DNA of 46,602 bases from a virus. Taxonomy: Duplodnaviria > Heunggongvirae > Uroviricota > Caudoviricetes. Both the position numbers and the translations under genes were made by a program. The stretch lies in IMG/VR virus record IMGVR_UViG_2724679140_000012, one strand, 5' to 3'. Within the stretch, counting starts at the first letter, position 1, and each line of letters opens with the position of its first letter. Shown here in pieces: positions 9,828 through 42,022 of this stretch. Below the pieces are notes generated by a model that worked only from the letters and a program-made list of their open reading frames with translations, was not told where the DNA came from and ran no database searches.

Positions 9828-9961
9828 AAAGAAGATTTCCAATAATCAGAACAAGTCGGCTCCTGTTTAGTTACGAGCGACATTGCTCCGTGTATTCACT
9901 CGTTGGAATGAATACACAGTGCAGTGTTTATTCTGTTGTTTATGCCAAAAATAAAGGACGA

Positions 9962-13553: not shown

Positions 13554-13850
13554 ATGGAACAAACAAGTTACAGCAAACTATCACAGCGCGACGTTGATCG
13601 CGCAGAAACAGATTTACTCATCAACCTGTCAACGCTTACCCAGCGCGGTCTGGCAAAGATGATTGGCTGTCATGAATCGAAGATAAGCAGAACGGACTGG
13701 AGATTTATTGCTTCGGTCTTGTGTGCTTTCGGAATGGCATCAGACATCAGTCCGATTAGCAGGGCTTTTAAGTATGCGCTTGATGAAATCACAAAGAAAA
13801 AATCCCCGGCCGCCACCGAGGATTTTAAGCAAATTGATATGCAATTCTGA
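13554..13850 (+). CDS. cII: CII-like transcriptional activator, 98 aa
   Basis: HTH (LAKMIGCHESKISR) and C-terminus KKKSPAATEDFKQIDMQF parallel lambda CII KKRPAATERSEQIQMEF. Confidence 0.85.
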   Translation: MEQTSYSKLSQRDVDRAETDLLINLSTLTQRGLAKMIGCHESKISRTDWRFIASVLCAFGMASDISPISRAFKYALDEITKKKSPAATEDFKQIDMQF

Positions 13851-13882
13851 GGGAATTACTGGATCAATCCACAGGAGTAATT

Positions 13883-14921: not shown

Positions 14922-17376
14922 TTTTTATGCGCCGCCCCATAGCATCGAGGCAGAGCAGGCGGTGATTGGTGGATTGCTTCTGGATGATGACAGCAGTGAG
15001 CGCGTCCAGAAAGTTCTGGCGATGCTGAAGCCTGATTCATTTTACAGCCGACCACACAAAATCCTTTTCGAAGAAATAACCTGAATGCACCGGGAGCAAA
15101 AGCCAGTAGATGGCCTGACGCTTTTCGATGAACTGGAGCGTAAATCGTTAACGGCGTCTGTTGGCGGTTTTGCTTATATCGCTGAGATCGCAAAGAACAC
15201 GCCAAGCGCAGCAAACATCGTTGCTTATGCAATGCAGGTTCGCGAAACCGCAATGGAACGCTACGCCATCAACCGCATGACTGAAGCGACGGAATTGCTC
15301 TATTCCCGCAACGGAATGACTGCAACGCAGAAGTACGAAGCTATTCAGGCGATTTTCACGCAACTGACAGACCATGCAAAAACCGGATCGCGTCGCGGCC
15401 TTCGCTCATTTGGTGAGGTCATGGAAGACTGGGTTAGCGACCTTGAGAAGCGATTTGACCCGTCAGGCGAACAACGAGGAATGAGCACAGGGATCCCATC
15501 GCTGGACAGGATGCTGTCACCGAAAGGTCTGGTGAAAGGCTCTCTGTTCGTCATTGGCGCTCGCCCTAAGATGGGGAAAGCGCAACCGCTTAATTCACGC
15601 ATTTTGCTTGCTGATGGTTCATGGACAACATTTCGTGACGTATGTGTTGGAGATTCCCTAGCATCAGTGGATGGACAACCATCATTCGTGTCTGGAGTTT
15701 TTCCTCAAGGGGAGCGAGATATTTACCGAGTTACGTTCTCTGACGGAAGAACCGTTGATTGCGCGGATGATCATTTGTGGGAAATTCATAGTAACCGTAT
15801 TACCGGTGGCGTTGATGTTGTAGACACCTGCCGCCTACGGGACATGATGGAATGCGTTCGCTATCAAAGCCGCATTCATGTTCCTGGTATTAGCGGTGAC
15901 TTCGGATTGCCTGTTGATTTAGGGATTAGCCCATGGCTGTTAGGTGCGTTACTTGGCGATGGAAATCTTGCAGGTACGCCACGAATCAGCATGACGGAAC
16001 CATACATCATTGAGCGAGTAAGATCTGAAGTGGGTGACGATATTGAAGTCAGGCATGTTTCTGGCTGCGATTACTCCCTATCTCACAAGTTTAGCCGCAA
16101 ATTATCTCTTACGCGGGTTATGCAACGGCTTGGTATCTACGGCCGGATGTCAGAGATTAAAATTATCCCGGATATTATTTTTTCTGCTGATAAGCAAACT
16201 CGTATTGATGTTCTATGCGGATTACTTGAAACCGATGGTTGGGTTGAAGGAAATAATGCCCTGCGCTTTAGCTCGGCAAGCAAGTTCCTGTCAGATGGTG
16301 TAAAGCGGCTGGTGCATTCTCTTGGTGGCGTGTGTCGTATGACAACCAAACAGGAGCCGAAATTCAGTTATAAGGGAGAAATGCGCAAAGGTATGGATGC
16401 CCATATTTGCGCAATCAGGTTGCCTGATGAGGTTCTATCACACATAAAATCTCCACGCCTGAAGCAAAAATTCACTGCAAAACGCATCAAAACAAGTGCG
16501 CCTGTTATCACGTCGGTTGAGTATATTGGACGTGAAGAGTGCATTTGCATCATGGTATCCCACGAGAGACATTTGTATGCAACTGACGGATACATTCTAA
16601 CCCACAACACCACGCTATACAGCCAGATGGCAATCAATTGCGCAGTGCATGAGAAAAAGCCCGCTCTGATGTTCAGCCTTGAAATGCCAGGTGATCAGAT
16701 ACTGGAAAAACTGGTAGGGCAGAAGTCTGGTGTTAACCCGAATATTTTTTACCTTCCGGCGACAAATGACGCCGATGACGGCTATCAGGGTGATTACGAT
16801 GGTGACTTCAACAGGGCGATCGAAACAGCCAATCGCTTGAGTGAAATCGACATGCTTTACATCGACGACACGCCGGGATTATCTCTGGCTCAAATCGTCA
16901 GCGAAAGCCGTCGAATCAAGCGAGAAAAAGGATGTGTTGGCATGATTCTGGTCGATTACCTGACACTAATGACCGCTGAGAAGGCCGATCGCAACGACCT
17001 TGCTTACGGCATGATCACCAAAGGACTGAAGAACCTTGCCAAAGAGCTTGATTGCGTTGTTGTGCTTCTGACACAGCTTAACCGCGCACTGGAAAGCCGA
17101 ACCAATAAACGCCCATTACCAAGTGACTCACGAGATACAGGGCAGATTGAACAGGATTGCGATTATTGGGTCGGGATCCATCGTGAAGGCGCTTTTGATG
17201 ACAGTGTTCCACCTGGGGAAACTGAACTAATCCTTCGTCTCAATCGTCATGGCAATACCGGCACGGTGTATTGCATTCAGGCAAATGGCTCTATTTATGA
17301 CACAGACCAACAGTCCGCTGAAATGCGCCGCCGTGAACGCGAGGAACCGCAATCCAAGAAGAAAGGAGGATTCTGA
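14911..17376 (+). CDS. DnaB-family replicative helicase (P22 gene-12-like) containing an intein; reading frame interrupted by in-frame TGA at 15082-15084
   Basis: N-terminal PPHSIEAEQAVIGGLLLDD and VGGFAYIAEIAKNTPSAANI align with E. coli DnaB; Walker A GARPKMGK is split from TTLYSQ by a 343-aa insertion; ORF track shows 14896..15084 and 15085..17376 in the same frame separated by TGA. Confidence 0.85.
15580..16608 (+). other. Intein (343 aa) with LAGLIDADG homing-endonuclease domain inserted in the helicase P-loop
   Basis: Insertion directly after GK of Walker A; ends THN followed by extein Thr; two LAGLIDADG-like motifs (LLGALLGDGNL, LCGLLETDGWV); first residue Ala; Trp in block B (DHLW), Cys in block F (CICIMV), Thr before HN. 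Confidence 0.8.
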
Positions 17377-19246: not shown

Positions 19247-19415
19247 TCCATCCCAATCTCTTCAATACCAGAAAGAAAGCGTCGAGCGGGCTTTAACGTG
19301 CGCTAACTGCGGTCAGAAGCTGCATGTGCTGGAAGTTCACGTGTGTGAGCACTGCTGCGCAGAACTGATGAGCGATCCTAATAGCTCGATGCACGAGGAA
19401 GAAGACGATGAATGA
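19239..19415 (+). CDS. ninF: NinF, 58 aa
   Basis: MLSPSQSLQYQKESVERALTCANCGQKLHVLEVHVCEHCCAELMSDPNSSMHEEEDDE matches lambda NinF as I recall it. Confidence 0.85.
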   Translation: MLSPSQSLQYQKESVERALTCANCGQKLHVLEVHVCEHCCAELMSDPNSSMHEEEDDE

Positions 19416-20130
19416 GTTAATAAATGGCAATGCCATCAAAATGACAAGCATTGAAATTGCTGAGTTGGTTGGTAAGCGTCATGACAATGTGAAACGTACC
19501 ATCGAAACGCTGGCTAAAAATGGTGTTATCCGACTTCCTCAAATTGAGGATTGTGGAAGAATCAATGGGTTAGGCTTAAATCAAAGTTTTTGTGTGTATG
19601 TATTCGAAGGCGAACAAGGAAAGCGAGACAGTATTGTCGTTGTAGCCCAGTTGTCGCCGGAATTCACCGCTCGTCTTGTTGACCGTTGGCGAGAGCTTGA
19701 AGAAACTGCGGTTAATATCCCCAAAACGTTACCGGAAGCGTTGCGCCTTGCTGCTGATCTTGCTGAGCAGAAAATGCAACTGGAAAACCAGCTCGCAATT
19801 GCCGCACCTAAAGTTGAGTTTGCCGATCGAGTTGGCGAGGCCAGCGGAATTTTGATTGGAAACTTTGCAAAGGTTGTCGGTATTGGTCCAAACAAACTGT
19901 TTGCGTGGATGCGCGATCACAAAATACTTATTGCTTCAGGTTCCCGGCGCAATGTGCCAATGCAGGAATATATGGAGCGCGGCTATTTCACAGTGAAAGA
20001 AACAGCGGTCAACACAAATCACGGAATACAGATATCGTTCACCACAAAAATCACCGGGCGTGGCCAACAGTGGCTGACCAGAAAGCTGCTCGATAACGGA
20101 ATGCTGAAAGTAACAGGGGAGGCTGCTTAA
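19408..20130 (+). CDS. Rha-family regulatory protein / antirepressor with KilA-C-type C-terminal domain, 240 aa
   Basis: N-terminal MTSIEIAELVGKRHDNVKRTIETL (Rha-like) and C-terminal FAKVVGIGPNKLFAWMRDHKIL (KilAC-like). Confidence 0.75.
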   Translation: MNELINGNAIKMTSIEIAELVGKRHDNVKRTIETLAKNGVIRLPQIEDCGRINGLGLNQSFCVYVFEGEQGKRDSIVVVAQLSPEFTARLVDRWRELEETAVNIPKTLPEALRLAADLAEQKMQLENQLAIAAPKVEFADRVGEASGILIGNFAKVVGIGPNKLFAWMRDHKILIASGSRRNVPMQEYMERGYFTVKETAVNTNHGIQISFTTKITGRGQQWLTRKLLDNGMLKVTGEAA

Positions 20131-20779: not shown

Positions 20780-20964
20780 ACGCCACAATTCAAACGATAC
20801 CAGAGCTTCTTATCCAGACACGAGGCAATCAGACCGAAGTGGCAAGGATGCTTTCCTGCGCAAGAGGAACAGTGCTCAAGTACAACCGAGACAGCAAAGG
20901 CGAGCGTCATGTAATAGTTAACGGCGTCCTGATGGTCAAACACGGCAAGAGGGGAAGACGATGA
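20776..20964 (+). CDS. ninH: NinH-like protein, 62 aa
   Basis: TIPELLIQTRGNQTEVARMLSCARGTVLKY parallels lambda NinH. Confidence 0.85.
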   Translation: MNATIQTIPELLIQTRGNQTEVARMLSCARGTVLKYNRDSKGERHVIVNGVLMVKHGKRGRR

Positions 20965-21584
20965 GACTCGAAAGCGTAGCTAAATTTCATTCGCCAAAAA
21001 GCCCGATGATGAGCGACTCACCACGGGCTACGGCTTCTGACTCTCTTTCCGGTACTGATGTGATGGCTGCTATGGGGATGGCGCAATCACAAGCCGGATT
21101 CGGAATGGCTGCATTCTGTGGTAAGCACGAACTCAGCCAGAACGACAAACAAAAGGCTATCAACTATCTGATGCAATTTGCACACAAGGTATCGGGGAAA
21201 TACCGTGGCGTGGCAAAGCTTGAAGGAAATACTAAGGCAAAGGTACTGCAAGTGCTCGCAACATTCGCTTATGCGGATTATTGCCGTAGTGCCGCGACGC
21301 CGGGCGCAAGATGCAGAGATTGCCACGGTACAGGCCGTGCGGTTGATATAGCCAAAACGGAGCAGTGGGGGAGAGTTGTTGAGAAAGAATGCGGAAGATG
21401 CAAAGGTGTCGGCTATTCAAGAATGCCAGCAAGCGCCGCATATCGCGCTGTGACGATGCTAATCCCAAATCTTACCCAACCCACCTGGTCACGCACTGTT
21501 AAGCCGCTGTATGACGCTCTGGTGGTGCAATGCCACAAAGAAGAGTCAATCGCAGACAACATTTTGAATGCGGTCACACGTTAG
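20961..21584 (+). CDS. Q: Late-gene antiterminator Q (lambda-type), 207 aa
   Basis: MRLESVAKFHSPKSPMMSDSPRATASDSLSGTD... appears near-identical to lambda Q; followed by lambda-like pR'. Confidence 0.95.
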   Translation: MRLESVAKFHSPKSPMMSDSPRATASDSLSGTDVMAAMGMAQSQAGFGMAAFCGKHELSQNDKQKAINYLMQFAHKVSGKYRGVAKLEGNTKAKVLQVLATFAYADYCRSAATPGARCRDCHGTGRAVDIAKTEQWGRVVEKECGRCKGVGYSRMPASAAYRAVTMLIPNLTQPTWSRTVKPLYDALVVQCHKEESIADNILNAVTR

Positions 21585-23362: not shown

Positions 23363-23406
23363 GCCATTATCAAAGCCACTCCCTACAGAGTGGCTTTGAT
23401 AATGGC
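23363..23406. repeat. Perfect 19-bp inverted repeat GCCATTATCAAAGCCACTC / GAGTGGCTTTGATAATGGC with 6-nt spacer
   Basis: Read directly; lies 60 bp upstream of the terminase small-subunit gene. Confidence 0.9.
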
Positions 23407-25533: not shown

Positions 25534-27068
25534 TGTTTAATTTTTTGAGAAAGAAAAAATCTGAGCCTCAGAAAGAAGAGGCGAAACAGCCAATGTCTCT
25601 GGCGAATGTTCTTGCGATTATTAACGAACAGGAGCGAATTAAAAATGAAGGCGAGGCATTGCGTAGAATTGAGAGATACGTACCCCCGCCAGGCGTTATT
25701 CCTGAACATATTGAGGAGTCAGCTCTGGCGATGGACTCCACGCCGTACAGTTACCTTAACTCAGCAAACATCACCGCATATGGCTACGGTGGATTTCCTG
25801 GCTACCCATATCTGTCTCAACTTGCTCAGTTGCCGGAGTATCGCAAGATTACTGGCACGATAGCAGAAGAGATGACGCGAAAATGGATTGAGCTGAAACA
25901 TGTAGGTAAAGACGATGGTGACGACAAGGCCGATAAGATTCGCCAGCTTGACGACGCATTAAAGCGTTTCAGAGTGCGAGAGAAGTTTCGCGAGGCGGCG
26001 GAACATGACGGTTACTTCGGGCGCGGACAGATTTATATCGACGTGAAGACGCCAAGCGGTAACTCAGCCTGGCTGGTTCCCGACGAACTGGATAAGAAGC
26101 TCTATATCAGCCCGCGCAAGATTACCAAAGGAAGCCTGAATGGTTTCCGCGTTATCGAGGCCATGTGGACATACCCTGGTGTGTATAACGCTGATAACCC
26201 TCTCAGTCCTGATTTCTTCAATCCATCTGAATGGTATGTCATGGGGCGCACGGTTCACGCCAGCCGTATGTTGACAATGATTTCTCGACAGGTGCCAGAC
26301 ATTCTCAAAGCTGCGTACAACTTCGGCGGCTTGTCGCTGAGTCAGATGGCAGAGCCATACGTGCAGAACTGGTTGAGAACGCGTGACAGCGTTAGCGATC
26401 TGGTTCATTCGTTTGTGGTCTATGGGCTGAAGACGAACATGCAGAGTGCCTTGTCTGGAATTGCAGACCCAAACCTGTTTATGCGTGCCGAGCTCTTTAA
26501 TAAGGTTCGCGACAATCGCGGAATGTTCCTTATTGATAAGGATGGAGAAGAATTCTTCCAGTTTGTGACAAGTCTGTCCGGAGTTGATGCTCTTCAGGCG
26601 CAAGCGCAGGAACAAATGGCATCGGTATCAAGCATTCCTCTGGTTAAGCTCCTTGGCATCACTCCTAACGGGCTAAACGCTTCATCTGATGGCGAAATCC
26701 GCGTCTTCTATGACTCAATACACGCCATGCAGGAGAATCTGTTCAGGGTGCCGCTGAAAACAGTGCTGGATGTTATCCAGTTGAATGAATTTGGCGAGAT
26801 TGACCCTGACATTGATTTTGAATTCCTGCCGCTGTACGAGCTTACAGAAGCAGAGAAAGCCGAGATCATGAAACATCAGTCTGAGGCTGATAAGAACTAT
26901 GCCGAAGCTGGCGTGTTCGACCTTGATGCAATAAGAAGCATGCGCCAGTCGGATAAGGCCAGCCCATACCACATGATGGAATCTGAATATGACGAAGAAG
27001 AGTACGAAAACGAGTCCATCGAAGAAGGATTCGAAGACACGGAAAACCCTTCGTCCAGTCAGAGCTAA
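25533..27068 (+). CDS. Portal protein, 511 aa
   Basis: Large ORF directly after terminase with acidic C-terminus; synteny. Confidence 0.8.
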
Positions 27069-27807
27069 CGCCGGAGTTCATGAGTGGTATCGCTCTGAGC
27101 TTCTCAAGCTGGTCAGTGAGATGAATAAGTCTTACCGGTACTGGCTTGAGGCTGCATACAAAGACAGCATGGCGATGGATGCCAGCCCCGCAAATGAATT
27201 GAAGCGCAGGCTGGCTAATCTTGGCAAGCAGTGGGAGCATAAATTCAATGAACTGGCTAAGAAACTGGCTGATCGCTTCGTTGATAAGACACTGCGCAAC
27301 ACCGACGTTTCGTTACACTCAGCGTTAAAGGCTGGCGGATTTACCGTTAAGTTCACAATGAATGACGAGCTTAAGAACGTGATGCAGGCTGTCGTTAACG
27401 AGAACGTCAACCTGATTAAATCCATACCTGAACACTATCACACACAGGTTGAGACGATAGTCATGCAGTCTGTCAGCCGTGGTCGTGACCTTAGCTATCT
27501 CACTGATGAACTGGTTAAGCGATATGGCATTACACGCAGACGCGCTGAGACGATTGCACGCGATCAGAACAACAAAGCTACAGCAGTAATTCAGTCTGAA
27601 CGGCAGAAGAAGTTAGGAATCACCAAAGGAATCTGGCGTCACTCACACGCCGGGAAGCAGCCAAGGCCATCCCATGTGAAAGCTGACGGTAAAGAGTTCG
27701 ACCTCGATAAAGGGCTGTATCTCGATGGTGAATGGGTGCTGCCGGGAGAGGCTATCAACTGCCGTTGTGCGTGGTCTCCTGTTATCCCTGGGATAGATAG
27801 AAAATGA
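26989..27807 (+). CDS. Head morphogenesis protein, Mu F / SPP1 gp7 family (start uncertain), ~272 aa
   Basis: C-terminal NCRCAW motif and position after portal; track start overlaps portal by 80 nt. Confidence 0.75.
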
Positions 27808-32402: not shown

Positions 32403-32914
32403 ATGATTTCACTGTCGATAATATTATCGATGTACTTGCTGGCTACATAGAACCTATCGCTGGTAAATGCCTGCAGGCTCAGGCTAACCGTGTACCAATG
32501 CCCAAAGATCAGTTCTGCATCCTGACCCCTTTGCGATTCACCAGACTATCCACGACGAGAGAGCTTAAACAAGATACCGGCTCTCCGGACACAAGCGCCA
32601 TGGGATATACGGAAGTTCGCCAGGCTGATATTCAGGTAGATATCTATGGTCAGGGTGCAGGGGATAGAGCTATTGCACTGGAAACAACATTCACCAGTGG
32701 ATATGGCTACGACATCATCAAGGCTATTGATGCACGGCTTGCGCCGCTTTACTCATCTCCTGCCATTCAGGCGCCGATGATCAACGCCGAGAGTCAGTGG
32801 CAGGAGCGTTACACGTTAACTCTTTCCCTGCAAGCACACATCACCGTGTCGTTCCAGCAGGACTATTTCGACAAAGCAGAAATTTCAACTGAACAGGTGG
32901 ATAACCGCCCATGA
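32399..32914 (+). CDS. Putative tail completion/terminator protein, ~171 aa
   Basis: Start at internal ATG 32399 (MNDFTVDNIID); position immediately before the sheath gene. Confidence 0.55.
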   Translation: MNDFTVDNIIDVLAGYIEPIAGKCLQAQANRVPMPKDQFCILTPLRFTRLSTTRELKQDTGSPDTSAMGYTEVRQADIQVDIYGQGAGDRAIALETTFTSGYGYDIIKAIDARLAPLYSSPAIQAPMINAESQWQERYTLTLSLQAHITVSFQQDYFDKAEISTEQVDNRP

Positions 32915-34401
32915 GCACAATTCCTTTATCTGTAGATTTTAATATCACGCCCAATGTCGTTACGCCTGCCGGTTCTGCGGTTGATGCTAACGGCCTGATG
33001 TTGACCGATAACGAGCTTATCCCGGTTGGCGCGGTACAATCTTATTACTCCTCATCTGATGTATCAGCTTTGATGGGGAGTGAATCGAAAGAATTCCTCG
33101 CAGCACAACAGTATTTTAACGGATACGAAAACTCATCTGTTATTCCTGGTGAACTGCTGATGTATCGTATTGTTACTTCACCAGTGGCTGGGTATCTTCT
33201 GTCCGGCAACCTGAAAGGTGTTACCCTGGCAACACTGAAAGCTATTCCAGCAGGAACAATCACCCTTTCCATTGACGGTGAGTCGACTACCAGCACATCA
33301 ATTGATTTGTCCACAGCCACAAGTTTTAGTGATATTGCGTCCAAGTTGCAGGTTGGAATTGGTGCAAGCAAGGTGGTGGTTGAATGGTTGCCAATCGCTA
33401 ACCGATTCATCATTCGCTCTGCCACTACTGGCGCAGAGAGTGAAGTGTCTTATGCCTCTGCTGGCGCTCTGGCTACCGGCTTGTTACTGACGCAGGATTC
33501 CGCAGCGATTGTATCACCGGGTTCTGATGCGGTAACTCTGACAGACACGATGAACAACATCATCAACGTCAACCAGAACTGGATCCTGTTTAACTCGCTG
33601 GTCGAACTGACCGATGACCAGAAAACAGAATTGTGCGCATGGGCAAGCAGCAGTAAAAACCGATTTGGATATGTTGTTCACGACACCACTTCAGCAGGAA
33701 CGGTAGCCAATAATGCCAATTGCTTTGTGCAGAAAGTGGTTGTGGCAAATGGCTACGAGAACATTTTTCCGGTGTACGGAACATACCTGTATAGCGTTAC
33801 AGCACTGGCATATGCCGCATCGGTCGACTTCGCTCGCACTAATGGACGCATCTCGTTCAAGTTCCGTGGATTCCCAGGGCTGACGCCTAACGTGAGCGAC
33901 CTGGCTACGGCTCAGGCTCTGAAATCAAACGGTTACAACTTCTACGGCTCATACAGCCTGAACAAAACAATGGCGCAGTACGCATCTGATGGTGCCATTA
34001 CTGGCAAGTTTGTATGGCTGGACAGTTTTATTAATCAGGTATGGATTAATGCCAATCTGGTTAGTGCTTTTGCCAACCTGTTCACCAATAACCAGTCTTA
34101 CCCGTTCAATGAGACAGGATACGGCGCAGTGTCTGCCGCTGTTATTGATGTTGCTGAACAGGCTCTCAATTTCGGGGCTATTCAGCGTGGCGTGAAACTT
34201 GATAATGCGCAAACCAGAATTGTGAATAACACAGTTGGAAAAGATATCTCATCGACGCTGTATTCACAGGGCTGGTTCCTGTACATCCCGACACAGTCAG
34301 GCTCTGCACGCATTGAGCGCGACCTGAAAGGTGTCATTTTTTATTATGTCGATGGGCAACTTATTCAGTCCATCACAATGTCCTCAACCGCGATTTTATA
34401 A
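32911..34401 (+). CDS. Putative contractile tail sheath protein, 496 aa
   Basis: Large ORF directly upstream of a ~140-aa tube-size gene, a chaperone pair and the tape measure gene. Confidence 0.75.
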   Translation: MSTIPLSVDFNITPNVVTPAGSAVDANGLMLTDNELIPVGAVQSYYSSSDVSALMGSESKEFLAAQQYFNGYENSSVIPGELLMYRIVTSPVAGYLLSGNLKGVTLATLKAIPAGTITLSIDGESTTSTSIDLSTATSFSDIASKLQVGIGASKVVVEWLPIANRFIIRSATTGAESEVSYASAGALATGLLLTQDSAAIVSPGSDAVTLTDTMNNIINVNQNWILFNSLVELTDDQKTELCAWASSSKNRFGYVVHDTTSAGTVANNANCFVQKVVVANGYENIFPVYGTYLYSVTALAYAASVDFARTNGRISFKFRGFPGLTPNVSDLATAQALKSNGYNFYGSYSLNKTMAQYASDGAITGKFVWLDSFINQVWINANLVSAFANLFTNNQSYPFNETGYGAVSAAVIDVAEQALNFGAIQRGVKLDNAQTRIVNNTVGKDISSTLYSQGWFLYIPTQSGSARIERDLKGVIFYYVDGQLIQSITMSSTAIL

Positions 34402-35254: not shown

Positions 35255-35469
35255 AGTACCCGTTCATGGAAGAGGAGACTCTTCCGGCAAAACTCGTTAG
35301 CCCCGTAAACGTCACACCATCAATGAACGCCATTATCTGTTCAGGAAAAGCCACTTATACCGATTTGCAGGAACGGTTATCTGTTCGTGATATGTATAAC
35401 CTTCTGGAAATTATCTCGGTGGAATCATTTAACAAGCGGGTCTGGAATAAACATCAGGAGCAGCGATGA
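35251..35469 (+). CDS. Frameshift extension of the tail assembly chaperone (GT-like), -1 frame
   Basis: ORF in the -1 frame relative to the chaperone, overlapping its stop and ending at the tape measure start. Confidence 0.6.
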   Translation: MKYPFMEEETLPAKLVSPVNVTPSMNAIICSGKATYTDLQERLSVRDMYNLLEIISVESFNKRVWNKHQEQR

Positions 35470-37283
35470 TTATCAATGAGTTGGCCTACAAGGTCACAAT
35501 TAAGGCCGATGAATTCCTGAATGGAAAACGGAAAGTAAAAGATGAAGTTAGTAAATTAAACAAAGATCTTTCCAGGGCTGAGAAGGAAAGGCTAAAGGAA
35601 CTTGAAAAACAGCGGCAGGAAACGGAGAGGTTCGGTAAAACCGCTGTTTCAGCTTTCCGCAACGTGACAACAGCAGCCGCTGGATTTTTGGGAATTGGCG
35701 CCGGGTTGTATGGAATCAAGCAACTTTTTACATCTACTGCCAACGAAATCGTGAGAGCCAGTCAACAGGCCAAGTTTTTCGGTTCTGATGTTAATAAGAT
35801 GTTTGGTGTTCAGCGGGGATTTCGCCAGGCTGGTCTTAACGGTGACTCGTTCATTTCATCTTCTGGGAATGCCAGAATGGCTTTGGCAAATATTGCCGAT
35901 CCAACTGTTATGGGAGGGCTTACTGGCGCTGCCCAAAATTTGCTGGTTCTTGGCGCTCGTACCGGATTAGATATCAATAAGCTCGGCGACCCAAACAAGG
36001 CTCTTGCTGAGTTTTCTCGCTATGGCAAGACTCATTCTCAAGAAAACCTGATGCAGGTGATGGCTGCCGCAGGGTTCGATCCGACAGATGCCGCTAAAAT
36101 AAAATCAGGGGAACTTAAGCAGCTTGTCGATTCAGAAACAAAGAAATCCCGTATTACAGCACAGCAGGTAAAAGAGCAGGAGAAGGTTGCTGCCACTCTT
36201 GGGCAACTTGATTCAGAGTTTTCCCGATTAAAGCAAAATTTAGCCATGGCATTCGCTCCAGACGTTATTGACGGGATGAAGGCTTTTGGTTCCTGGATTG
36301 AGAAACATCATGGCGACATCATTGGCTTTTTCAATGACGCCGGGAATATGACGAAGCAATTCACAAAGGCAGTTGGTGGTGCGGAAGAGGCTCTGAAGCT
36401 ATTGGCAGCAGCATATGTAGGAAGCAAACTTACAGGCGGTGCCCTTCCTCCATGGTTGGCTGGGTTAATAGCATATGGTTTGTACCTCTACAATGACAGG
36501 GAAAACATTGAGGGTGCAGCTAAAGGATCGTTTGATTACTCTAAGCGTGAACTTGGAGATACCATGCGCAGCATGGGGTTTGAAACCGATTTTGGGCGTA
36601 GGGGAGATGAGATTTATGGCAATAACATTCAGCCAGATATCCCTCTCCCTGACGGAGTAAAGCCTGTAAGCATGGATTCTCTTCTTGATGCCATTCGTGA
36701 GGTGGAATCGAGTGGTGGTAAAAAACTTTACAGCCCGAAAGGTGCTGTTGGTCCGTATCAGTTCATGAAGGATACTGCCATAGCGTACGGGTTAAAGGTC
36801 GGTGATGGGATTGATGAGCGTCTTGATGAGGTAAAATCTCGCGCTGCTTCTGAAAGGTTCATGAGGGATTTGCTAAAGCACTATAAAGGCAATGTTAACC
36901 ATGCGCTGATGGCTTATAACTGGGGAATGGGCAATGTAGACAAAAAGTTAAAATATATATCCAGTGCCGGGTTTGATTCACCATCATCCAAATACTGGAA
37001 CACCCTGCCGAAAGAAACGCGAGAATATGTACCAAAGATTCGCGCCGCTCTTAATGCAAAAGAAAACGAGACGCTGGCTTACTATCAGCAGCAGCAACGC
37101 ATCGCTTCAACACCAAGCCAGACAACATCAAAAATTGACAACAGCCGTAGCAGCAGTACAACTATTGGCACGGTAGTTGTTAACAGTAACCCGACAACAG
37201 TTGATGCTCTTACCAGAAGTGTCAATCAGCAAGTTAGCCGGGTGTCAACAAACGCGGCATTTTCTAGTGGCGTAACACCTTAA
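35466..37283 (+). CDS. Tail tape measure protein with C-terminal lytic transglycosylase (SLT) domain, 605 aa
   Basis: Coiled-coil N-terminal half; SLT motifs EVESSGG, GPYQF, AYNWG in the C-terminal half; position after the chaperone pair. Confidence 0.85.
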   Translation: MIINELAYKVTIKADEFLNGKRKVKDEVSKLNKDLSRAEKERLKELEKQRQETERFGKTAVSAFRNVTTAAAGFLGIGAGLYGIKQLFTSTANEIVRASQQAKFFGSDVNKMFGVQRGFRQAGLNGDSFISSSGNARMALANIADPTVMGGLTGAAQNLLVLGARTGLDINKLGDPNKALAEFSRYGKTHSQENLMQVMAAAGFDPTDAAKIKSGELKQLVDSETKKSRITAQQVKEQEKVAATLGQLDSEFSRLKQNLAMAFAPDVIDGMKAFGSWIEKHHGDIIGFFNDAGNMTKQFTKAVGGAEEALKLLAAAYVGSKLTGGALPPWLAGLIAYGLYLYNDRENIEGAAKGSFDYSKRELGDTMRSMGFETDFGRRGDEIYGNNIQPDIPLPDGVKPVSMDSLLDAIREVESSGGKKLYSPKGAVGPYQFMKDTAIAYGLKVGDGIDERLDEVKSRAASERFMRDLLKHYKGNVNHALMAYNWGMGNVDKKLKYISSAGFDSPSSKYWNTLPKETREYVPKIRAALNAKENETLAYYQQQQRIASTPSQTTSKIDNSRSSSTTIGTVVVNSNPTTVDALTRSVNQQVSRVSTNAAFSSGVTP

Positions 37284-37303
37284 CGATCATGTCATAATGA
37301 CGA

Positions 37304-37705
37304 TTATTTTTTATTATCAAGACCGCCATTATGGTATATGTAATACCCTACCTGAATGGCGGAAAGAACTAGCCCGGTTCTGTTCTCGGTATTTTTTTTG
37401 CTTTCTCCTTGAAGATTTTTCTTTTGTTTTTTGGCGCTTGATAAAACCTCTCTTTCAATGTCCTCATACTGCATGCCATCGTAAGCGTTTTGGTATGCAC
37501 CTTGGCATACGCGGGATATTGTCTGTATGAGGTCCATCCTTTTGGACTCCTGCAATGGAACGTCCTTTTCATAGGAGCTAACCAAGGACGATGAAGCTCT
37601 GTTGCAATCCACTAAAACTTGATGTGAAGTAAGGCCGCCAGACGAGAAGCACACGGAAGGGCTTAGCAGAAAGAGGATTGAGATGGTAGATTTTAAGATG
37701 TTCAT
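37304..37705 (-). CDS. Hypothetical exported/membrane protein, 133 aa (moron gene C)
   Basis: N-terminal signal-like MNILKSTISILFLLSPSVC; AT-rich; opposite strand to flanking tail genes; weak RBS. Confidence 0.6.
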   Translation of the reverse strand: MNILKSTISILFLLSPSVCFSSGGLTSHQVLVDCNRASSSLVSSYEKDVPLQESKRMDLIQTISRVCQGAYQNAYDGMQYEDIEREVLSSAKKQKKNLQGESKKNTENRTGLVLSAIQVGYYIYHNGGLDNKK

Positions 37706-37769
37706 TTTAGAGATCCGTATTGGTTATTTCAATTACCCATTAAATGAAGAAAAAACACGCAACACCCAC

Positions 37770-38120
37770 TCAGGTGGGCTTGTCATCATTATTGACAACG
37801 ATATGATCTTGACATTCGCTCAGTAAGGCGCCTATTTCACGATGATTAAACCCTTCAGCGATGAATCTTTTCCCGTCGTTAGTTTGTATCTCTAGCTTTT
37901 CCCCCTTGTTTCTGGCGACGAAATATCCAATTGCAGCAGATAAACAATTCATTGCCGCAGGGCTTGTTATTCCGTTAACAATTACTTGCACCCACTCTGG
38001 TGGAGACGAGCTGTCGAATGCGAGTGTTACATGTGGCTTATGTTCTAGCCCCCATGTTTGCATTGCTTCGTTCAATGATTCAACATCTTCTTGTCGGACG
38101 GTAAAAATGAAACTTTCCAT
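37770..38120 (-). CDS. Hypothetical protein, 116 aa (moron gene B)
   Basis: ATG at 38120-38118 with GGAG 8 nt upstream; hairpin CCCAC-CUGA-GUGGG overlapping the stop then a U-run. Confidence 0.6.
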   Translation of the reverse strand: MESFIFTVRQEDVESLNEAMQTWGLEHKPHVTLAFDSSSPPEWVQVIVNGITSPAAMNCLSAAIGYFVARNKGEKLEIQTNDGKRFIAEGFNHREIGALLSECQDHIVVNNDDKPT

Positions 38121-38346
38121 CGTTTACACTCCATCGTTAAAAAATATTGGTAATGCCTTTAGCCTAATCTGGGGTGGGATATCATTGCTTCTCGGGAGAG
38201 AGGTCTCTATCGAGAGTGATATTACCCCAACAGAATTCACCAAAATGGTGGTCGATGATCTTCGCCGGCAAGCAAAGAGCGGAGAGTTGAAAATGACTCA
38301 AGAAGAGTTGCGCACTTCGCTGCTTGCTGCTCTTGATGGAAATTAA
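38107..38346 (+). CDS. Possible small protein, 79 aa, in the gap between moron genes A and B
   Basis: Open frame filling the 235-nt gap; weak RBS; 5' end overlaps the start of gene B on the other strand. Confidence 0.3.
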   Translation: MKLSIVYTPSLKNIGNAFSLIWGGISLLLGREVSIESDITPTEFTKMVVDDLRRQAKSGELKMTQEELRTSLLAALDGN

Positions 38347-38355
38347 TTGCTACTA

Positions 38356-38823
38356 TCAAGAGTTTTTTAATCCTGGAATTATGGGTCTAGATAAACATCC
38401 ACACCCTACAAGTTGTCCTGGGTGGATGTACTTGAAAAAACCGATCCTGATTCCTTTACGAATAGAGTACTTTTTGCCATTGAGATTGCGGTGACTGGGA
38501 TGTTTACATAGGAAATCCTCAAACACCCACGCTGCCTCAGTGATCTTAATCTTTAATCGGCGTGCCGCCTCAACCTCAGGATTAGTGATAGACCAAAGGA
38601 TCATAGCAAGACGGCCAGATATCTTTTCGCTAAGTCCGGTTTCTTGAATGATGTTATTCTTTGAGTTGTACAGGTTTCGACCATGCTTTACGACATCTTG
38701 GTATAGCCCTTTATGGTTCTTAACATCGATAATTAATTTCTTGATTATCAACAACTCATCTGCTGATGCTTTTTTAAATTCTACATTGATGATTTCATTT
38801 TCTTCCTTGCTAAGACATGCCAT
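38356..38823 (-). CDS. Hypothetical protein, 155 aa (moron gene A), immediately downstream of mnt
   Basis: ATG at 38823-38821 with GAGG 6 nt upstream, 23 nt after the mnt-like stop; AT-rich, Lys/Ile/Asn-rich. Confidence 0.65.
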   Translation of the reverse strand: MACLSKEENEIINVEFKKASADELLIIKKLIIDVKNHKGLYQDVVKHGRNLYNSKNNIIQETGLSEKISGRLAMILWSITNPEVEAARRLKIKITEAAWVFEDFLCKHPSHRNLNGKKYSIRKGIRIGFFKYIHPGQLVGCGCLSRPIIPGLKNS

Positions 38824-38846
38824 AGCAACCTCGTAATATCGTCTTC

Positions 38847-39089
38847 TTACTTGATGTTTGCTTCCTTAATGGCTGCAACCTCTCTCTCAAGAGCTATTAA
38901 TCTTTCGGTTAAGGAAGAAAGGCTAAGCGAGTGAACATGTTTATTTTCTCCTGCCCATGCACTTAGAGCTGCAACCATTTCTGCATTTAAAGATCTGCCA
39001 TTCGCCTCAGCTAACGCGGTTAGGCGATCCTTTATCTCCACAGGAAGTCGAAGATTAACTTGTGGGTTCTTGTACCTGCGTTCAGACAT
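38847..39089 (-). CDS. mnt: Mnt-like ribbon-helix-helix repressor, ~80 aa
   Basis: N-terminal NLRLPVEIKDRLTALAEANGRSLNAEMVAAL parallels the P22 Mnt RHH motif (EANGRSMNSELLQIV); divergent from arc/ant. Confidence 0.8.
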   Translation of the reverse strand: MSERRYKNPQVNLRLPVEIKDRLTALAEANGRSLNAEMVAALSAWAGENKHVHSLSLSSLTERLIALEREVAAIKEANIK

Positions 39090-39095
39090 CAGCAT

Positions 39096-39194
39096 ATCCT
39101 GAATAATTTTTTACCACAGGATATGTAGGTATCTATTGACTATCAATGCGTACCTACATACTATGTATGCGTACCGCATACCAAAGGAGCGAAA
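39096..39194. promoter_or_regulatory. immI-type divergent control region: Pant candidate (-35 TTGACT 39136-39141, -10 TACTAT 39159-39164) and operator-like palindromes
   Basis: Inverted repeats TGTAGGTA/TACCTACA (39124-39131 and 39151-39158) flanking the -35, and GTATGCG-TAC-CGCATAC (39164-39180) over the start region. Confidence 0.6.
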
Positions 39195-39341
39195 ATGAAA
39201 GTAAAAACGTTAAGGATGCCAGAATGGCTCGAAAAAGCTTTGGAGCAGTCAGCGAAAAAGGATGATCGGTCATTCAGCAATGAGGTGTTGAGGAGGCTTA
39301 AGGAGTCGGTAGCTAAGGACGGGATTGTTTGTCCAGAATGA
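39195..39341 (+). CDS. arc: Arc-like ribbon-helix-helix repressor, 48 aa
   Basis: ATG at 39195 with AAGGAG upstream; RHH-sized protein with SFSNEVLRRLKESV; position upstream of ant as in P22. Confidence 0.75.
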   Translation: MKVKTLRMPEWLEKALEQSAKKDDRSFSNEVLRRLKESVAKDGIVCPE

Positions 39342-39407
39342 GTAAAGCCCCAGATATTGCGAGTATCTAGGGCTTAAATCGCCAGTAAGTATTGAGGAAA
39401 AACTGAC

Positions 39408-40337
39408 ATGAAAAGTATAGCAACAGCGGTATCTACTATCAACGTACCATTCCACGGCGCAGAGCTTTATGTTGTCAATCACAACGGCGAACCGTACACC
39501 CCAATGAAACCTATCGTTGAGGGAATGGGTATGACTTGGCAGTCTCAACACCGCAAGTTGATGGAGAGATTTAAGACCTGCATCATCGAAATGATGATTC
39601 AGCTCCCCGGTGATACTCAGCGTCGTCTGGTTATCTGTCTTGCTTTACGTAAACTTGCAGGCTGGCTGCAAACCATCAGCCCTAACAAAGTCCGTCCTGA
39701 AATCCGCGACAAGGTAATCCAGTATCAGGAAGAGTGTGACGATGTGCTCTATGAGTACTGGACTAAAGGCCATGTGGTTAATCCACGCAAAGCTAAAAAG
39801 GCGTTGCCGGGCAAAATCACCACTGAACAGCAGGAAGCCATTAAACAACTTGTCATGAGTCGTGGTCAGTCTCTGCCAAAAGAAAAACAGGCGAAGGCGA
39901 TGATCACCATGTGGTCGTCACTGAAATCCCATTTTGGATGTTCGTACAAAGAAATCAGTGAGGAGCAGTTTACCGAAGCACTGTCACTTGCAGCTCGAGT
40001 TCCACTTGAAGGTGAGTTCATTAGCAAGCAAGAGAAGAAAGCAAACGAGCTTTCTGCAAAAGAAGCAAACAGCCTTGTATGGTTATGGGATTATGCCAAC
40101 CGCTCACAGGCATTATTCCGCGAACTGTATCCGGCATTAAAACAAATTCAATCGAACTATTCCGGCAGATGCTACGACTACGGTCATGAGTTCTCGTATG
40201 TTATCGGAACGGCGAGAGACGTTTTAATCAACCACACACGAGATGTTGATATCAATGAGCCAGACGGACCAACAAATCTTTCTGCATGGATAAGGCTTAA
40301 GAATAAAGAATTGCCGCCTTCTGTTCATCTGTATTAA
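39408..40337 (+). CDS. ant: Antirepressor (Ant-like), 309 aa
   Basis: Position downstream of arc and divergent from mnt; N-terminal domain resembles phage antirepressor N-domains from memory. Confidence 0.75.
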
Positions 40338-40344
40338 TGACGCA

Positions 40345-40384
40345 TCTGGCGGTGAAAAAAACCGCCAGTGTGCTGCTGGCGGCC
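40345..40384. terminator. Hairpin cluster after ant (alternative stems among CTGGCGG / CCGCCAG / CTGGCGG)
   Basis: Three mutually complementary 7-mers; A-run on plus strand means the T-run follows the hairpin only on the minus strand. Confidence 0.4.
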
Positions 40385-40420
40385 TATGTCACACCCTTAC
40401 TACCACATAAGGAATGCTTA

Positions 40421-41146
40421 ATGACTTTTAAGAATGTAGCAAACATCGGATCCGTTGTCACGGATAAAACCATTGACAGCCAGCGCCTTCTTGAGATGGT
40501 AAATCAGGCTCGTAGACAGTGCGGTGAGCCATCAGTACGTAACAACAAATTCATCGAGAAAATTGAGGATGAATTGGAGGGCGAGACCTACACAAAAAGT
40601 GTAGGTCGGAAAAACGGGGCTGACATTGATGTTATCTCCATGACTATCAAGCAGGCGCTTCGTGTTGCTGCTCGCGAATCTAAAGCAGTTCGCCGAACAC
40701 TTGTAGACAAACTTGAAAGTATGCAGGAAGCGCACATTAAAAGCGGTAAATCGTCGAGTGGACTTGTTGAGTATCGCCAGGCGCGAACATTGAAAATGAC
40801 GGTTGAAGCTGTTACCAATCTGTTCGATTTGATGCCAAATCTTGCGCCGGAAGCAAAGCAGACTGCGGCCGCAAGCATAATCAACCCGATCGTTGGTTTT
40901 AATGCAATACCCCTTCCGGCAATAGAAGAGCATTACTACTCAGCAGGGGAGGTTGCAGAGCAGCTTGGAGTAACGGCAAACAAGATTGGTCGCATTGCTA
41001 ACGCAAACAACCTCAAAACTGAGCAGTACGGGAAGTTCTTCCTGGATAAATCTGCGCATTCCAGCAAACAGGTGGAAGCATTCCGCTACAACTCAAAAGG
41101 AGTTGAAGTATTGAGAAATCTAGTTAATGTTTCTACCGCAGCCTAA
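40421..41146 (+). CDS. Second antirepressor-like / DNA-binding regulatory protein, 241 aa
   Basis: ATG at 40421 with AAGGA upstream (track ORF begins earlier at 40337); followed by a strong terminator; function inferred from position only. Confidence 0.6.
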   Translation: MTFKNVANIGSVVTDKTIDSQRLLEMVNQARRQCGEPSVRNNKFIEKIEDELEGETYTKSVGRKNGADIDVISMTIKQALRVAARESKAVRRTLVDKLESMQEAHIKSGKSSSGLVEYRQARTLKMTVEAVTNLFDLMPNLAPEAKQTAAASIINPIVGFNAIPLPAIEEHYYSAGEVAEQLGVTANKIGRIANANNLKTEQYGKFFLDKSAHSSKQVEAFRYNSKGVEVLRNLVNVSTAA

Positions 41147-41165
41147 TTAAATCTTTTTATAAAAA

Positions 41166-41193
41166 CCAACCCAGCTTCGGCTGGGTTTTTGTT
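41166..41193 (+). terminator. Intrinsic terminator closing the immI-like insertion
   Basis: Hairpin AACCCAGC-UUCG-GCUGGGUU followed by UUUUUGUUU. Confidence 0.75.
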
Positions 41194-41206
41194 TAATGGA
41201 GAGTAG

Positions 41207-42022
41207 ATGGGCATAATCGATTTAAACACAGCAGACATATTCAATGCTATCGGTGGTGGCTCTCCGCTTTCGATCATCGACAGCGTTCTGCATCCCCAGT
41301 ATGTGATTCGTGACAGGGAAACTGGCGAGGTTGCTCTTGAGTTCAGTGGTATGGCATCCGTACAGCCAAGTGGAAGGGCGCAAATAACAAACGCTCCGGT
41401 GGAGAAAGGGAAATACCAGTCCATCAACAAAGTTAAAGAACCTGCCAGGGTAAGGTGCGCAATCATCGTAAATGGTCTTACTGGTTTTTCCGGCAACATC
41501 CCGAATATTTTCGATCTAACATTCACAAGCCAAAACAGCACGCTGAACACAATCAAAACGATGCTGTCCTCTGCAAAAACATACGACATTGAAACGCCAA
41601 AGGAAACTCTGGAGAGTTTCGACCTTGTTGACCACTATTACGAAGTTAACTCTCAAAAAGGGGTGACTCTTCTGACGGTTTATCTTGATTTTCAGGAGGT
41701 CATTCAACAAATGGAGGTTATCCTCTCTGGATCTCAGTCAGAACAGAAGCCAACGGATAACAATAAGTCACAGGGAGATGTAGGAGTTGATCCACAAATA
41801 ACCAATGGCGGAGCCAGGGAATCTACTGTCGATGAGCTAAGTAAATCATGGTCATCACTGAAGTCATCTGTTGGCGGAATCACTGGAAAAATCTCCGGTA
41901 CAATCAAGACTGAATTTCATAGTGCTCTTGATACAGTGTCCAAACCAATACTCGAAGTTACAAACAGCGCAACAAAAAAAGCGGCAGATATTGCAAAAAA
42001 TATAGTTAAGGCGAGTACATGA
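41207..42022 (+). CDS. Putative tail/baseplate protein, 271 aa
   Basis: ATG with GGAGAG upstream; resumes the tail module after the insertion. Confidence 0.6.
   Translation: MGIIDLNTADIFNAIGGGSPLSIIDSVLHPQYVIRDRETGEVALEFSGMASVQPSGRAQITNAPVEKGKYQSINKVKEPARVRCAIIVNGLTGFSGNIPNIFDLTFTSQNSTLNTIKTMLSSAKTYDIETPKETLESFDLVDHYYEVNSQKGVTLLTVYLDFQEVIQQMEVILSGSQSEQKPTDNNKSQGDVGVDPQITNGGARESTVDELSKSWSSLKSSVGGITGKISGTIKTEFHSALDTVSKPILEVTNSATKKAADIAKNIVKAST

Follow-up and report, generated by a model that had tools for sequence, protein, structure and literature searches.

A CUS-3-type immI cassette predicted at the tape-measure–baseplate junction of a Gofduovirus-like Escherichia coli prophage

Introduction

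The immI module of phage P22 comprises the divergent genes mnt (leftward) and arc (rightward), which encode two ribbon-helix-helix (RHH) repressors and share one control region, followed directly downstream of arc by the antirepressor gene ant. In the annotated P22 record, the module sits between the ejection gene 16 and the tailspike gene 9. The variable late-operon region of P22-like phages has been named the "ant moron," and ten types were distinguished in sixteen genomes, the CUS-3-type ant morons being apparently without arc (Villafane, Casjens et al., 2008, PMC2629481). The genetics of P22 immI, from which the mechanism considered here is drawn, are summarised in the same survey. Furthermore, an ImmI region with Ant, Mnt, and Arc has already been reported in the Edwardsiella phage Edno5 (PMC6372524), and a literature search yielded no paper on the junction between tape measure and baseplate genes beyond these two. 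The present report is focused on this junction in a lambdoid E. coli prophage with a contractile tail, contained in the IMG/VR record IMGVR_UViG_2724679140_000012 (46,602 nucleotides, hereafter the window; positions are those of the window unless a compared locus is named by its handle, as in L010). We read the region as an ant moron, i.e., an independently regulated accessory cassette, whose right half would be a heteroimmune variant of P22 immI working much as in P22, and assign a probability of approximately 0.8 to this reading. A previous sequence-only reading had described a divergent Mnt-like and Arc-like RHH pair, operator-like palindromes, a Pant-like promoter, an antirepressor, and a further gene, all of which are present at or near the positions claimed; their location in a contractile-tail cluster, between the tape measure gene ending at 37283 and the first baseplate gene at 41207, is borne out by the gene calls.

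Extent and Gene Content of the Cassette

The distance from the tape-measure stop to the baseplate start is 3923 bp, and no morphogenetic gene lies inside. The flanking genes and the genes of the right half are as follows.

35466-37283, plus strand: tape measure protein with a lytic transglycosylase (SLT) domain (Pfam SLT, E = 2.8e-19)
38847-39095, minus strand: Mnt-like RHH repressor (Pfam Arc, E = 2.1e-10)
39195-39341, plus strand: Arc-like RHH repressor of 48 aa (Pfam Arc, E = 1.6e-5)
39408-40337, plus strand: antirepressor Ant of 309 aa (Pfam P22_AR_N, E = 1.3e-45; P22_AR_C, E = 1.6e-29)
40421-41146, plus strand: second antirepressor-like protein, "Ant2," of 241 aa, with AGGA ahead of its ATG (PHROG 1726)
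41166-41192, plus strand: intrinsic terminator carrying the P22 ant-terminator allele (hairpin 41168-41187 followed by a T run)
41207-42022, plus strand: first baseplate-region protein with a weak Dit-like match (Pfam Dit_like, E = 1.4e-4, under the cut-off)

From left to right, three leftward open reading frames (ORFs; 133, 116, and 155 aa) and a single short rightward one are followed by the leftward mnt-like gene, a 100-bp control region, and then, all rightward, the arc-like gene, ant, an 83-nt spacer, and the 241-aa gene, after which the hairpin terminator is found. The right half of this arrangement is a P22 immI-type module, and mnt, arc, ant, and ant2 are all intact and full length in comparison with their homologues. 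The tape measure gene is kept in all relatives, and its stop codon forms the left edge of the variable region. The cassette consequently starts at 37284, right after this stop, and runs to approximately 41190; the insertion boundaries of the sequence-only reading thus stood at the right end (41166-41193), whereas its left end at 38847 was placed too far to the right. The insert is accessory DNA, judged by comparison of the loci, because relatives have only 71–285 bp between the tape measure and the baseplate gene.

Every piece of the cassette is known elsewhere. The exact combination of the left-hand cargo with mnt/arc/ant and ant2 is absent from complete E. coli RefSeq genomes, among which the best coverage was 88%. 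In a DNA search of the whole region against isolated phages, only the pieces ant and ant2 were matched; likewise, no isolated phage with the backbone of the window was found at the DNA level, and the Edwardsiella phages GF-2 and Edno5 (genus Gofduovirus) surfaced only in the protein-level search.

The immI-Type Module

The Mnt-like gene probably starts at its second ATG (39089), yielding a protein of 80 aa, as in its RefSeq homologues, which are named "Arc family DNA-binding protein." In BLASTP comparisons of the RHH parts, it is 47% identical to P22 Mnt over residues 10–41, and the Arc-like protein is 31% identical to P22 Arc. The two genes diverge, mnt leftward and arc rightward, from a single control region, and the gene directly downstream of arc belongs to the P22 Ant family, with 57% identity to P22 Ant over the full length and 89% protein identity to CUS-3 Ant. 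In comparison with CUS-3, the N-terminal DNA-binding part of the Mnt-like protein is conserved and its C-terminal part has diverged. The Arc-like protein is 100% identical to WP_021528598.1, which is annotated in L001, L003, and the P22-like prophage L026. As a separate observation, CUS-3 (L009) has an unannotated Arc-like ORF at 2758-2898, between its second mnt and ant, which is 58% identical to the Arc-like protein of the window.

The predicted DNA-contacting strands differ from those of P22: PQVNLRLP in the Mnt-like protein versus PHFNFRMP in P22 Mnt, and KVKTLRMP in the Arc-like protein versus PQFNLRWP in P22 Arc. In both RHH proteins, these N-terminal strands are conserved relative to CUS-3 but differ from those of P22. 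Since the core control region is conserved with CUS-3 together with strands unlike those of P22, the sequences fit a distinct operator specificity for the two RHH proteins of the window. Because the DNA-contacting residues differ from those of P22 and the operators are unrelated in sequence, the module is classed, by sequence comparison, as a heteroimmune variant of P22 immI.

The candidate control elements, most of which lie in the 100-bp region between mnt and arc, are as follows.

39118-39146, minus strand: candidate Pmnt, TTGATA-17-TATCCT (consensus scan, 9/12)
39122-39160: 39-bp imperfect palindrome centred on both -35 hexamers, in which 15 of 18 arm positions pair
39136-39164, plus strand: candidate Pant, sigma-70-like, TTGACT-17-TACTAT (consensus scan)
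39165-39181: perfect 7-3-7 palindrome of 17 bp, GTATGCG-TAC-CGCATAC, directly after the Pant -10 hexamer (read from the sequence)
39341-39407, minus strand: sar-like antisense RNA over the ant ribosome-binding region (Rfam RF00262)
39414-39442, minus strand: Psar-like promoter, TTGATA-17-TATACT, with an extended -10 TG, a joint-best promoter match in the region (10/12)

Relative to arc, the candidate Pant is placed just as Pant is in the P22 annotation. The candidate Pmnt and Pant lie back to back, their -35 hexamers sharing one base, unlike in P22, where the two promoters overlap fully; a P22-style full overlap in the window was rejected, since the hexamers at the matching positions are poor (3/6 and 2/6, by eye). 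Palindromes of the quality of the 39-bp element occur at three loci in the 46.6-kb window, compared with 0.05 expected in shuffles, and its position across both -35 hexamers makes it a candidate operator that could shut both promoters, in a role like that of the Arc operator. The other two long near-perfect palindromes are found at 23365-23404 (up to 17/18 paired), just upstream of the small terminase gene, and at 9884-9923 (15/18). The 17-bp palindrome shares its length and position class with the P22 mnt operator, which is annotated just downstream of the Pant -10 hexamer, and is therefore a candidate analogue of it. The core control region is approximately 96% identical to that of CUS-3, whereas identity drops to 64% in the mnt and 58% in the arc coding sequence. 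A control region conserved together with the N-terminal strands is the pattern that would be expected if the RHH proteins read these sites, which falls short of proof.

At the 5′ end of ant, the counterpart of sar is predicted in full. The Rfam model RF00262 is matched over its full length (positions 1–68 of 68) with 28.7 bits and E = 0.0088. The promoter lies 6–34 nt into ant, at an offset identical to that of the annotated P22 Psar (L010 5098-5126, with the ant start at 5092); the predicted transcript crosses the ribosome-binding site, and its terminator hairpin is located at 39340-39380 in the arc–ant spacer. Furthermore, both sar stems are kept in the consensus fold of six ant leaders from different cassettes, in which 8 of 23 pairs are compensatory. 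This antisense RNA was absent from the sequence-only reading and emerged in the follow-up.

The terminator also links the module to P22. Bases 41166-41189 are identical to the annotated P22 ant terminator (L010 6013-6036) at 23 of 24 positions; the element follows ant2 here and ant in P22. Nearly all relatives have a hairpin with a T run immediately ahead of the baseplate gene, also at loci without an insert, and the stem sequences differ among them; the stem of the window, like that of the E. coli prophages with ant, has the sequence of the P22 ant terminator. In L001 and L003, the 20 nt ahead of the terminator also match P22 and CUS-3, and the 16 nt past the T run are backbone. The terminator was therefore rejected as a purely backbone feature, and by its sequence it appears to be the right-hand joint of cassette and backbone and is a plausible recombination site. 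The proposal that a strong terminator at 41166-41193 brackets the insertion was thus right in that it ends the cassette, but the hairpin as such is shared with relatives without the insert.

Comparison With P22, CUS-3, and Other Ant Morons

The window resembles P22 immI in gene order and orientation, in having RHH proteins as both regulators, in an Ant with both P22_AR domains, in the Psar offset, in the sar hairpins, and in the terminator; in both, the module interrupts the late operon just ahead of host-recognition or tail-tip genes. Beyond the diverged Mnt and Arc proteins with other DNA-contacting strands, the unrelated operators, and the promoter arrangement, the window differs from P22 by the second antirepressor-like gene after ant and by its contractile tail, P22 having a podovirus tail. 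Taken together, the sequence comparisons indicate a complete immI homologue, including sar and the ant terminator.

Close relatives of the module are found in CUS-3 and in P22-like prophages of E. coli, in which the segment from the second mnt through the operator and the arc-like gene to ant is approximately 87–89% identical at the DNA level. In the E. coli P22-like prophages PSJ-36 and LR-25, mnt/arc/ant (approximately 89% DNA identity) lies between the ejection-protein genes and the tailspike, and the Arc protein of the LR-25 prophage is 100% identical to that of the window. Unlike in the window, the CUS-3-type cassettes sit between ejection-protein genes and a podovirus tailspike with different left-hand cargo, and CUS-3 itself carries two additions, a P22-type mnt and a small ORF that separates arc from ant. 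By sequence, the cassette of the window is accordingly classed as a CUS-3-type immI, or ant moron, in a Gofduovirus-like E. coli prophage.

The isolated phages GF-2 and Edno5 are comparable in another respect. Their backbone is syntenic (sheath, tube, tape measure, baseplate), and the insertion point is the same. The interval from the SLT tape measure to the baseplate gene contains, in order, a leftward RHH gene of Mnt-like type and the rightward genes for an Arc-like protein and Ant. However, arc abuts or overlaps ant in these phages, leaving no room for a sar hairpin, there is no second antirepressor gene, and the N-terminal part of their Ant differs by eye from that of the window.

A third group comprises the ant moron of the Lederbergvirus JEP4 and the cassettes of E. 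coli A41 and STEC299, in which the Ant2 gene is 85–96% identical to that of the window and carries the leader. Unlike the window, these cassettes have a leftward CI/C2-like or LexA-family (S24) repressor and a 57-aa ORF instead of Mnt and Arc, and a 73-aa ORF after Ant2. The JEP4 ant moron contains a C2-like repressor, the 57-aa ORF, Rha, KilA, and the 73-aa ORF. Since this is the cassette type found in STEC299 and A41 at the tape-measure–baseplate junction, whole ant-moron cassettes are, by these comparisons, shared between the P22-like and Gofduovirus-like groups.

The Second Antirepressor-Like Gene

A longer reading of Ant2 as 269 aa from 40337 is unlikely: its RefSeq homologues have 241–242 aa, and AGGA precedes the ATG at 40421. 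The family is large (1673 clusters), and the label of PHROG 1726 reads "anti-repressor." The P22-like phage JEP4 has in its ant moron a "KilA protein" gene with 96% DNA identity to ant2. Nothing significant was found in Pfam, NCBIfam, or PDB sequence searches, with no Pfam or NCBIfam match even at E = 10, and hhalign gave a negative result for the Ant2 family against the Rha+KilAC protein encoded in the window itself. An AlphaFold model from 23 sequences is of moderate confidence (pLDDT 69.8); in a Foldseek search of viral models, KilAC/antirepressor proteins were at the top with E = 1e-8 and a TM score of only 0.3–0.4. Based on the PHROG label and these structural matches, the protein is most likely better described as a second antirepressor-like protein than as the "second regulator" of the sequence-only reading, in which the gene itself was correctly recognised and the start was set at 40337 instead of 40421.

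The spacer between ant and ant2 contains one further element.

40346-40381, plus strand: ant–ant2 spacer element, CTGGCGG / CCGCCAG / CTGGCGG (read from the sequence)

The three segments can form two mutually exclusive hairpins, with no T run after them. The spacer is also found in E. coli A41 (L004), and the ant2-proximal hairpin in phage JEP4; the element is possibly involved in processing or attenuation.

The Junction in Related Prophages

The sequence-only reading regarded the location as an unusual mosaic placement, and this was not supported. Besides GF-2 and Edno5, both of which are isolated phages of the group, 12 of 18 E. coli records carry a P22AR-type Ant at the junction (records from complete genomes with both flanks, several of which come from the same studies and may be near-clonal). 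P22 immI itself interrupts a late operon between genes 16 and 9, and hence the placement in the window, where the tape measure is the ejected protein on one side and host-proximal tail parts follow on the other, is analogous rather than odd. The arrangement is largely the norm of this phage group, although the cassette is not universal. What remains of the original proposal is the identity of the module as a P22 immI-type switch, carried by the Mnt/Arc pair, Pant, the Ant homology, sar, and the terminator, and not the idea of a one-off placement.

At least six content types occur at the junction among the E. coli relatives; of the 18 records, 3 have nothing but a P63C-domain gene there and 3 nothing but a Panacea-domain gene pair. 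The regulator ahead of ant varies as well: Mnt/Arc in L001–L003, a 106-aa Arc-family protein with a 53-aa RHH protein in L005, a LexA-family S24 protein with a 57-aa ORF in L004, and a helix-turn-helix (HTH) protein with the same 57-aa ORF in L006. A common core of ant and the sar hairpins lies behind differing regulators in L004 (5102-7997), L006 (2224-4655), L005 (3788-6171), and L014 (3808-6242), and one of the alternative regulators is another RHH pair, with separate operators of the direct-repeat type. This variation suggests interchangeable sensors for the release of Ant. A Panacea-domain gene with a 139-aa partner, a toxin–antitoxin-like pair, is also seen at the junction, alone or beside the ant module (L007 2965-3832, L004 4222-5089).

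Across 21 loci, including species representatives of other genera, the gap between the tape measure and the baseplate gene ranges from 71 to 4950 bp. Examples among the species representatives are as follows.

L015 (Izhakiella): gap of 71 bp, no content
L017 (Symbiopectobacterium): gap of 184 bp, no content
L019 (Ewingella): gap of 263 bp, no content
L011: gap of 285 bp, no content
L022 and L013: gaps of 527 and 567 bp, one exported protein
L018 (Yersinia nurmii): gap of 1602 bp, exported protein and 212-aa ORF of unknown function
L012: gap of 2126 bp, Mnt-like and Ant-like genes
L014: gap of 3243 bp, CI-like, RHH, and two antirepressor-like genes

An Mnt/Ant module does occur in L015 and L011 at another position of the tail region, either ahead of the tail-fibre gene or past the tail genes. 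L011 (CACSKA010000002.1) is titled Chryseobacterium sp.; its baseplate protein and tape measure are 76% and 71% identical to the E. coli ones, and it is probably a mislabelled or contaminant enterobacterial contig. In this region a variable, non-morphogenetic gene set, often with ant, is present, absent, or different among syntenic relatives at a fixed place in the late operon, as in an ant moron. The tape-measure–baseplate junction is a hot spot, since Ant cassettes are found there in GF-2, Edno5, and most E. coli relatives while contents and gap vary; the antirepressor cassette is common there without being universal.

Proposed Working and Alternative Explanations

By analogy with P22, the module would work as follows. 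In the lysogen, the Mnt-like protein would be made from the leftward promoter and would hold Pant off, probably from the 17-bp palindrome at the Pant transcript start, such that no antirepressor is produced; the leftward cargo genes behind mnt would be expressed together with it. Upon entry of the genome into a cell free of Mnt, Pant would fire, and the Arc-like protein, Ant, and Ant2 would be made. The Arc-like protein would then occupy the 39-bp palindrome across both -35 hexamers and shut Pant and Pmnt, and the sar-like RNA, transcribed from the promoter in the 5′ end of ant, would pair with the ant ribosome-binding region and limit translation. Through Arc closure and the sar block, Ant would be made only transiently. 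It would bind CI/C2-type repressors non-covalently and inactivate them, which would lift the immunity of this or of co-resident lambdoid prophages. Transcripts from Pant would end at the P22-type ant terminator, and Q-modified late transcripts would have to read through the cassette and the terminator to reach the baseplate genes. The pairing of palindromes with proteins, the activity of the promoters, the expression of sar, and the targets of Ant and Ant2 are thus predicted by analogy. In agreement with the proposed working, the prophage encodes a CI-type repressor, CII, and a Q antiterminator. Direct control of ant by LexA (SOS), of the Gifsy or coliphage 186 Tum type, was rejected, as no LexA box within three mismatches was found in 37284-41206, the sole match in the window being located at 13857-13876; the copy of the cassette in the window would therefore not be directly SOS-controlled.

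Several points weigh against the reading as an independently regulated immI variant. The sar match stays below the Rfam gathering score of 43. The candidate Pmnt is weak, and its back-to-back arrangement departs from that of P22; the region has about as many promoter-like sites as expected (9 versus 8.3), and for this reason the promoter assignments lean on their positional match to P22. The 17-bp palindrome is no rarer than by chance (23 comparable ones observed versus 17 expected), the operator sequences are unlike those of P22, and the palindromes were assigned to Mnt and Arc by position only. The resident CI is only 25% identical to P22 C2. Finally, Ant2 is without a curated family, its model is of moderate confidence, and its profile comparison with the Rha/KilAC protein of the window gave no match.

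The alternative that fares best, which we nevertheless consider improbable, is that the cassette mainly sets the dosage of baseplate and tail-fibre genes by throttling late transcripts through opposing transcription, DNA occupied by repressor, and a terminator within the tail operon, antirepression being secondary. The ant moron of P22 is thought to affect tailspike levels via read-through of late transcription (PMC2629481), and both a junction hairpin kept even in relatives without an insert and a phage-encoded Q antiterminator agree with such a role. However, the relatives with gaps of 71–285 bp and no ant module keep equivalent tail genes, and the contents are freely swapped (Mnt/Arc, CI-like or HTH regulators, toxin–antitoxin pair, P63C), which argues against a conserved role in tail stoichiometry; a full-length, strongly conserved Ant likewise argues against dosage as the main function. 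Throttling of baseplate expression is possible as a side effect of the cassette.

Somewhat less probable again is that the module is a decaying remnant, obtained from a P22-like phage through recombination and non-functional in a contractile-tailed prophage. Decay does occur at this site, as shown by an ant pseudogene in L003 and a frameshifted P63C gene in L008, and degraded ant genes are known in HK620 and Scho1 (PMC2629481); by contrast, in the window the four genes, the promoter hexamers, the sar stems, and the terminator are all intact, and the control region is better conserved than the flanking coding DNA. It is very unlikely that the RHH proteins are antitoxin-like or partition-type proteins (ParG/RelB-like) serving their cargo neighbours: PHROG 795 and 2685, which match the Mnt-like protein, are labelled "partition protein ATPase," and a weak RelB-like match was obtained in NCBIfam (E = 1.2e-4, far under the cut-off), but the P22 Mnt record itself carries the same label, which is thus an annotation artefact, the gene order, divergent orientation, sar, ant, and terminator are all as in immI, and no toxin or ParA-type gene was found adjacent to the RHH pair with Pfam or PADLOC. 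The heteroimmune immI variant within an ant moron is therefore retained as the preferred reading.

Left-Hand Cargo Genes

The left half of the cassette contains the following four ORFs.

37304-37705, minus strand: 133-aa ORF with a signal-peptide-like N-terminus, of which RefSeq calls only the last 77 aa
37770-38120, minus strand: 116-aa cargo ORF (phrog_12509, function unknown), annotated in L001 and L002
38107-38346, plus strand: 79-aa ORF, a hypothetical protein in close relatives (WP_047085298.1 at the matching place in L001)
38356-38823, minus strand: 155-aa stand-alone paralogue of a MuF C-terminal part, directly downstream of mnt

In Pfam, NCBIfam, and PDB sequence searches of the cargo ORFs, nothing significant was found, and only insignificant matches were obtained with the PADLOC defence-system models. 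The 79-aa ORF is 98.7% identical to WP_047085298.1 (tblastn). The 133-aa ORF has no family match in Pfam, PHROG, NCBIfam, and PADLOC searches, and is weakly similar to an ORF of Yersinia nurmii (L018 3061-3510; 33% over 43 aa, E = 0.001). Most relatives have, as the first gene past the tape measure, one for a small protein whose N-terminus is signal-peptide-like or of membrane type; opposite-strand examples are found in L004 (3321-3794), L008 (2077-2535), L012 (7878-8645), L013 (9494-9901), L018 (3061-3510), and L022 (2937-3395). These small exported or membrane proteins are mostly unrelated in sequence, with some weak pairwise similarity. Together with the 133-aa ORF, they are candidates for superinfection-exclusion or envelope proteins expressed in the lysogen, for which sieA in the P22 ant moron provides the analogue.

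The 155-aa protein is 24% identical over 109 aa to the prophage's own MuF head protein (26989-27807; BLASTP, E = 1e-11) and matches phrog_324, "head morphogenesis," with E = 1.6e-8; an HPxxxxxCxC-like end is kept. Its family is small, with 18 clusters in the protein database, all from Enterobacterales. The position of the gene immediately after mnt makes co-transcription of the two probable, and we speculate that the 155-aa product could be a lysogen-expressed decoy against related phages.

Prophage Backbone

The window represents a lambdoid, contractile-tailed prophage whose gene set is, by Pfam matches and gene order, Gofduovirus-like. The assignment was made by synteny (DUF3383 sheath, tube, SLT tape measure, and baseplate genes, together with lambdoid early genes) and protein similarity. 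The first baseplate protein matches phrog_1830 with E = 4e-74 and is 65% identical to its homologues in GF-2 and Edno5. The following backbone genes are referred to above or help to define the group.

12434-13141, minus strand: CI-type repressor with HTH_3 and Peptidase_S24 domains (Pfam)
13554-13850: CII (Pfam)
20961-21584: Q antiterminator (Pfam)
26989-27807: MuF-type head protein (Pfam Phage_Mu_F)
32911-34401: DUF3383 sheath

Further backbone genes encode a DnaB-type helicase, lysis proteins, the terminase, the portal, the MuF-type head protein listed above, and the tube protein. The nin region ahead of Q contains a third antirepressor-like gene (19408-20130, plus strand), whose product has Phage_pRha and ANT/KilAC domains, and which brings the antirepressor-type genes of the prophage to three. 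In the DnaB-type replicative helicase of 763 aa (15085-17376, plus strand), the DnaB N-terminal match stops at residue 54 and the C-terminal domain begins at approximately residue 509; a LAGLIDADG homing-endonuclease match is found between the two parts, at residues 376–422, and the helicase looks like an intein-containing protein.

Perspective

A broader view of the junction is put forward here as a tentative idea, for which we claim far less than for the immI assignment. The junction with its conserved hairpin may be a docking site at which ant cassettes are swapped with P22-like podoviruses, the terminator being the shared joint, the core of ant and sar standing behind interchangeable sensors, and the mnt-linked cargo possibly comprising interference factors. 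If so, related prophages would differ in the signal that releases Ant, be it Mnt/Arc, a cleavable CI/LexA-family protein, or a plain HTH repressor, and the exported protein and the truncated MuF copy could be lysogen-expressed means of interference against related phages.

No new mechanism is revealed by the cassette, and the arrangement had already been noted for Edno5 (PMC6372524). What the window nevertheless offers is an apparently clean case of a contractile-tailed lambdoid E. coli prophage that has the whole P22-type immI, sar and ant terminator included. The comparisons indicate that the late operons of podoviruses and myoviruses exchange antirepressor cassettes as units, which land at one defined junction, which should be useful for the annotation of prophages and for thinking about cross-induction among co-resident prophages.

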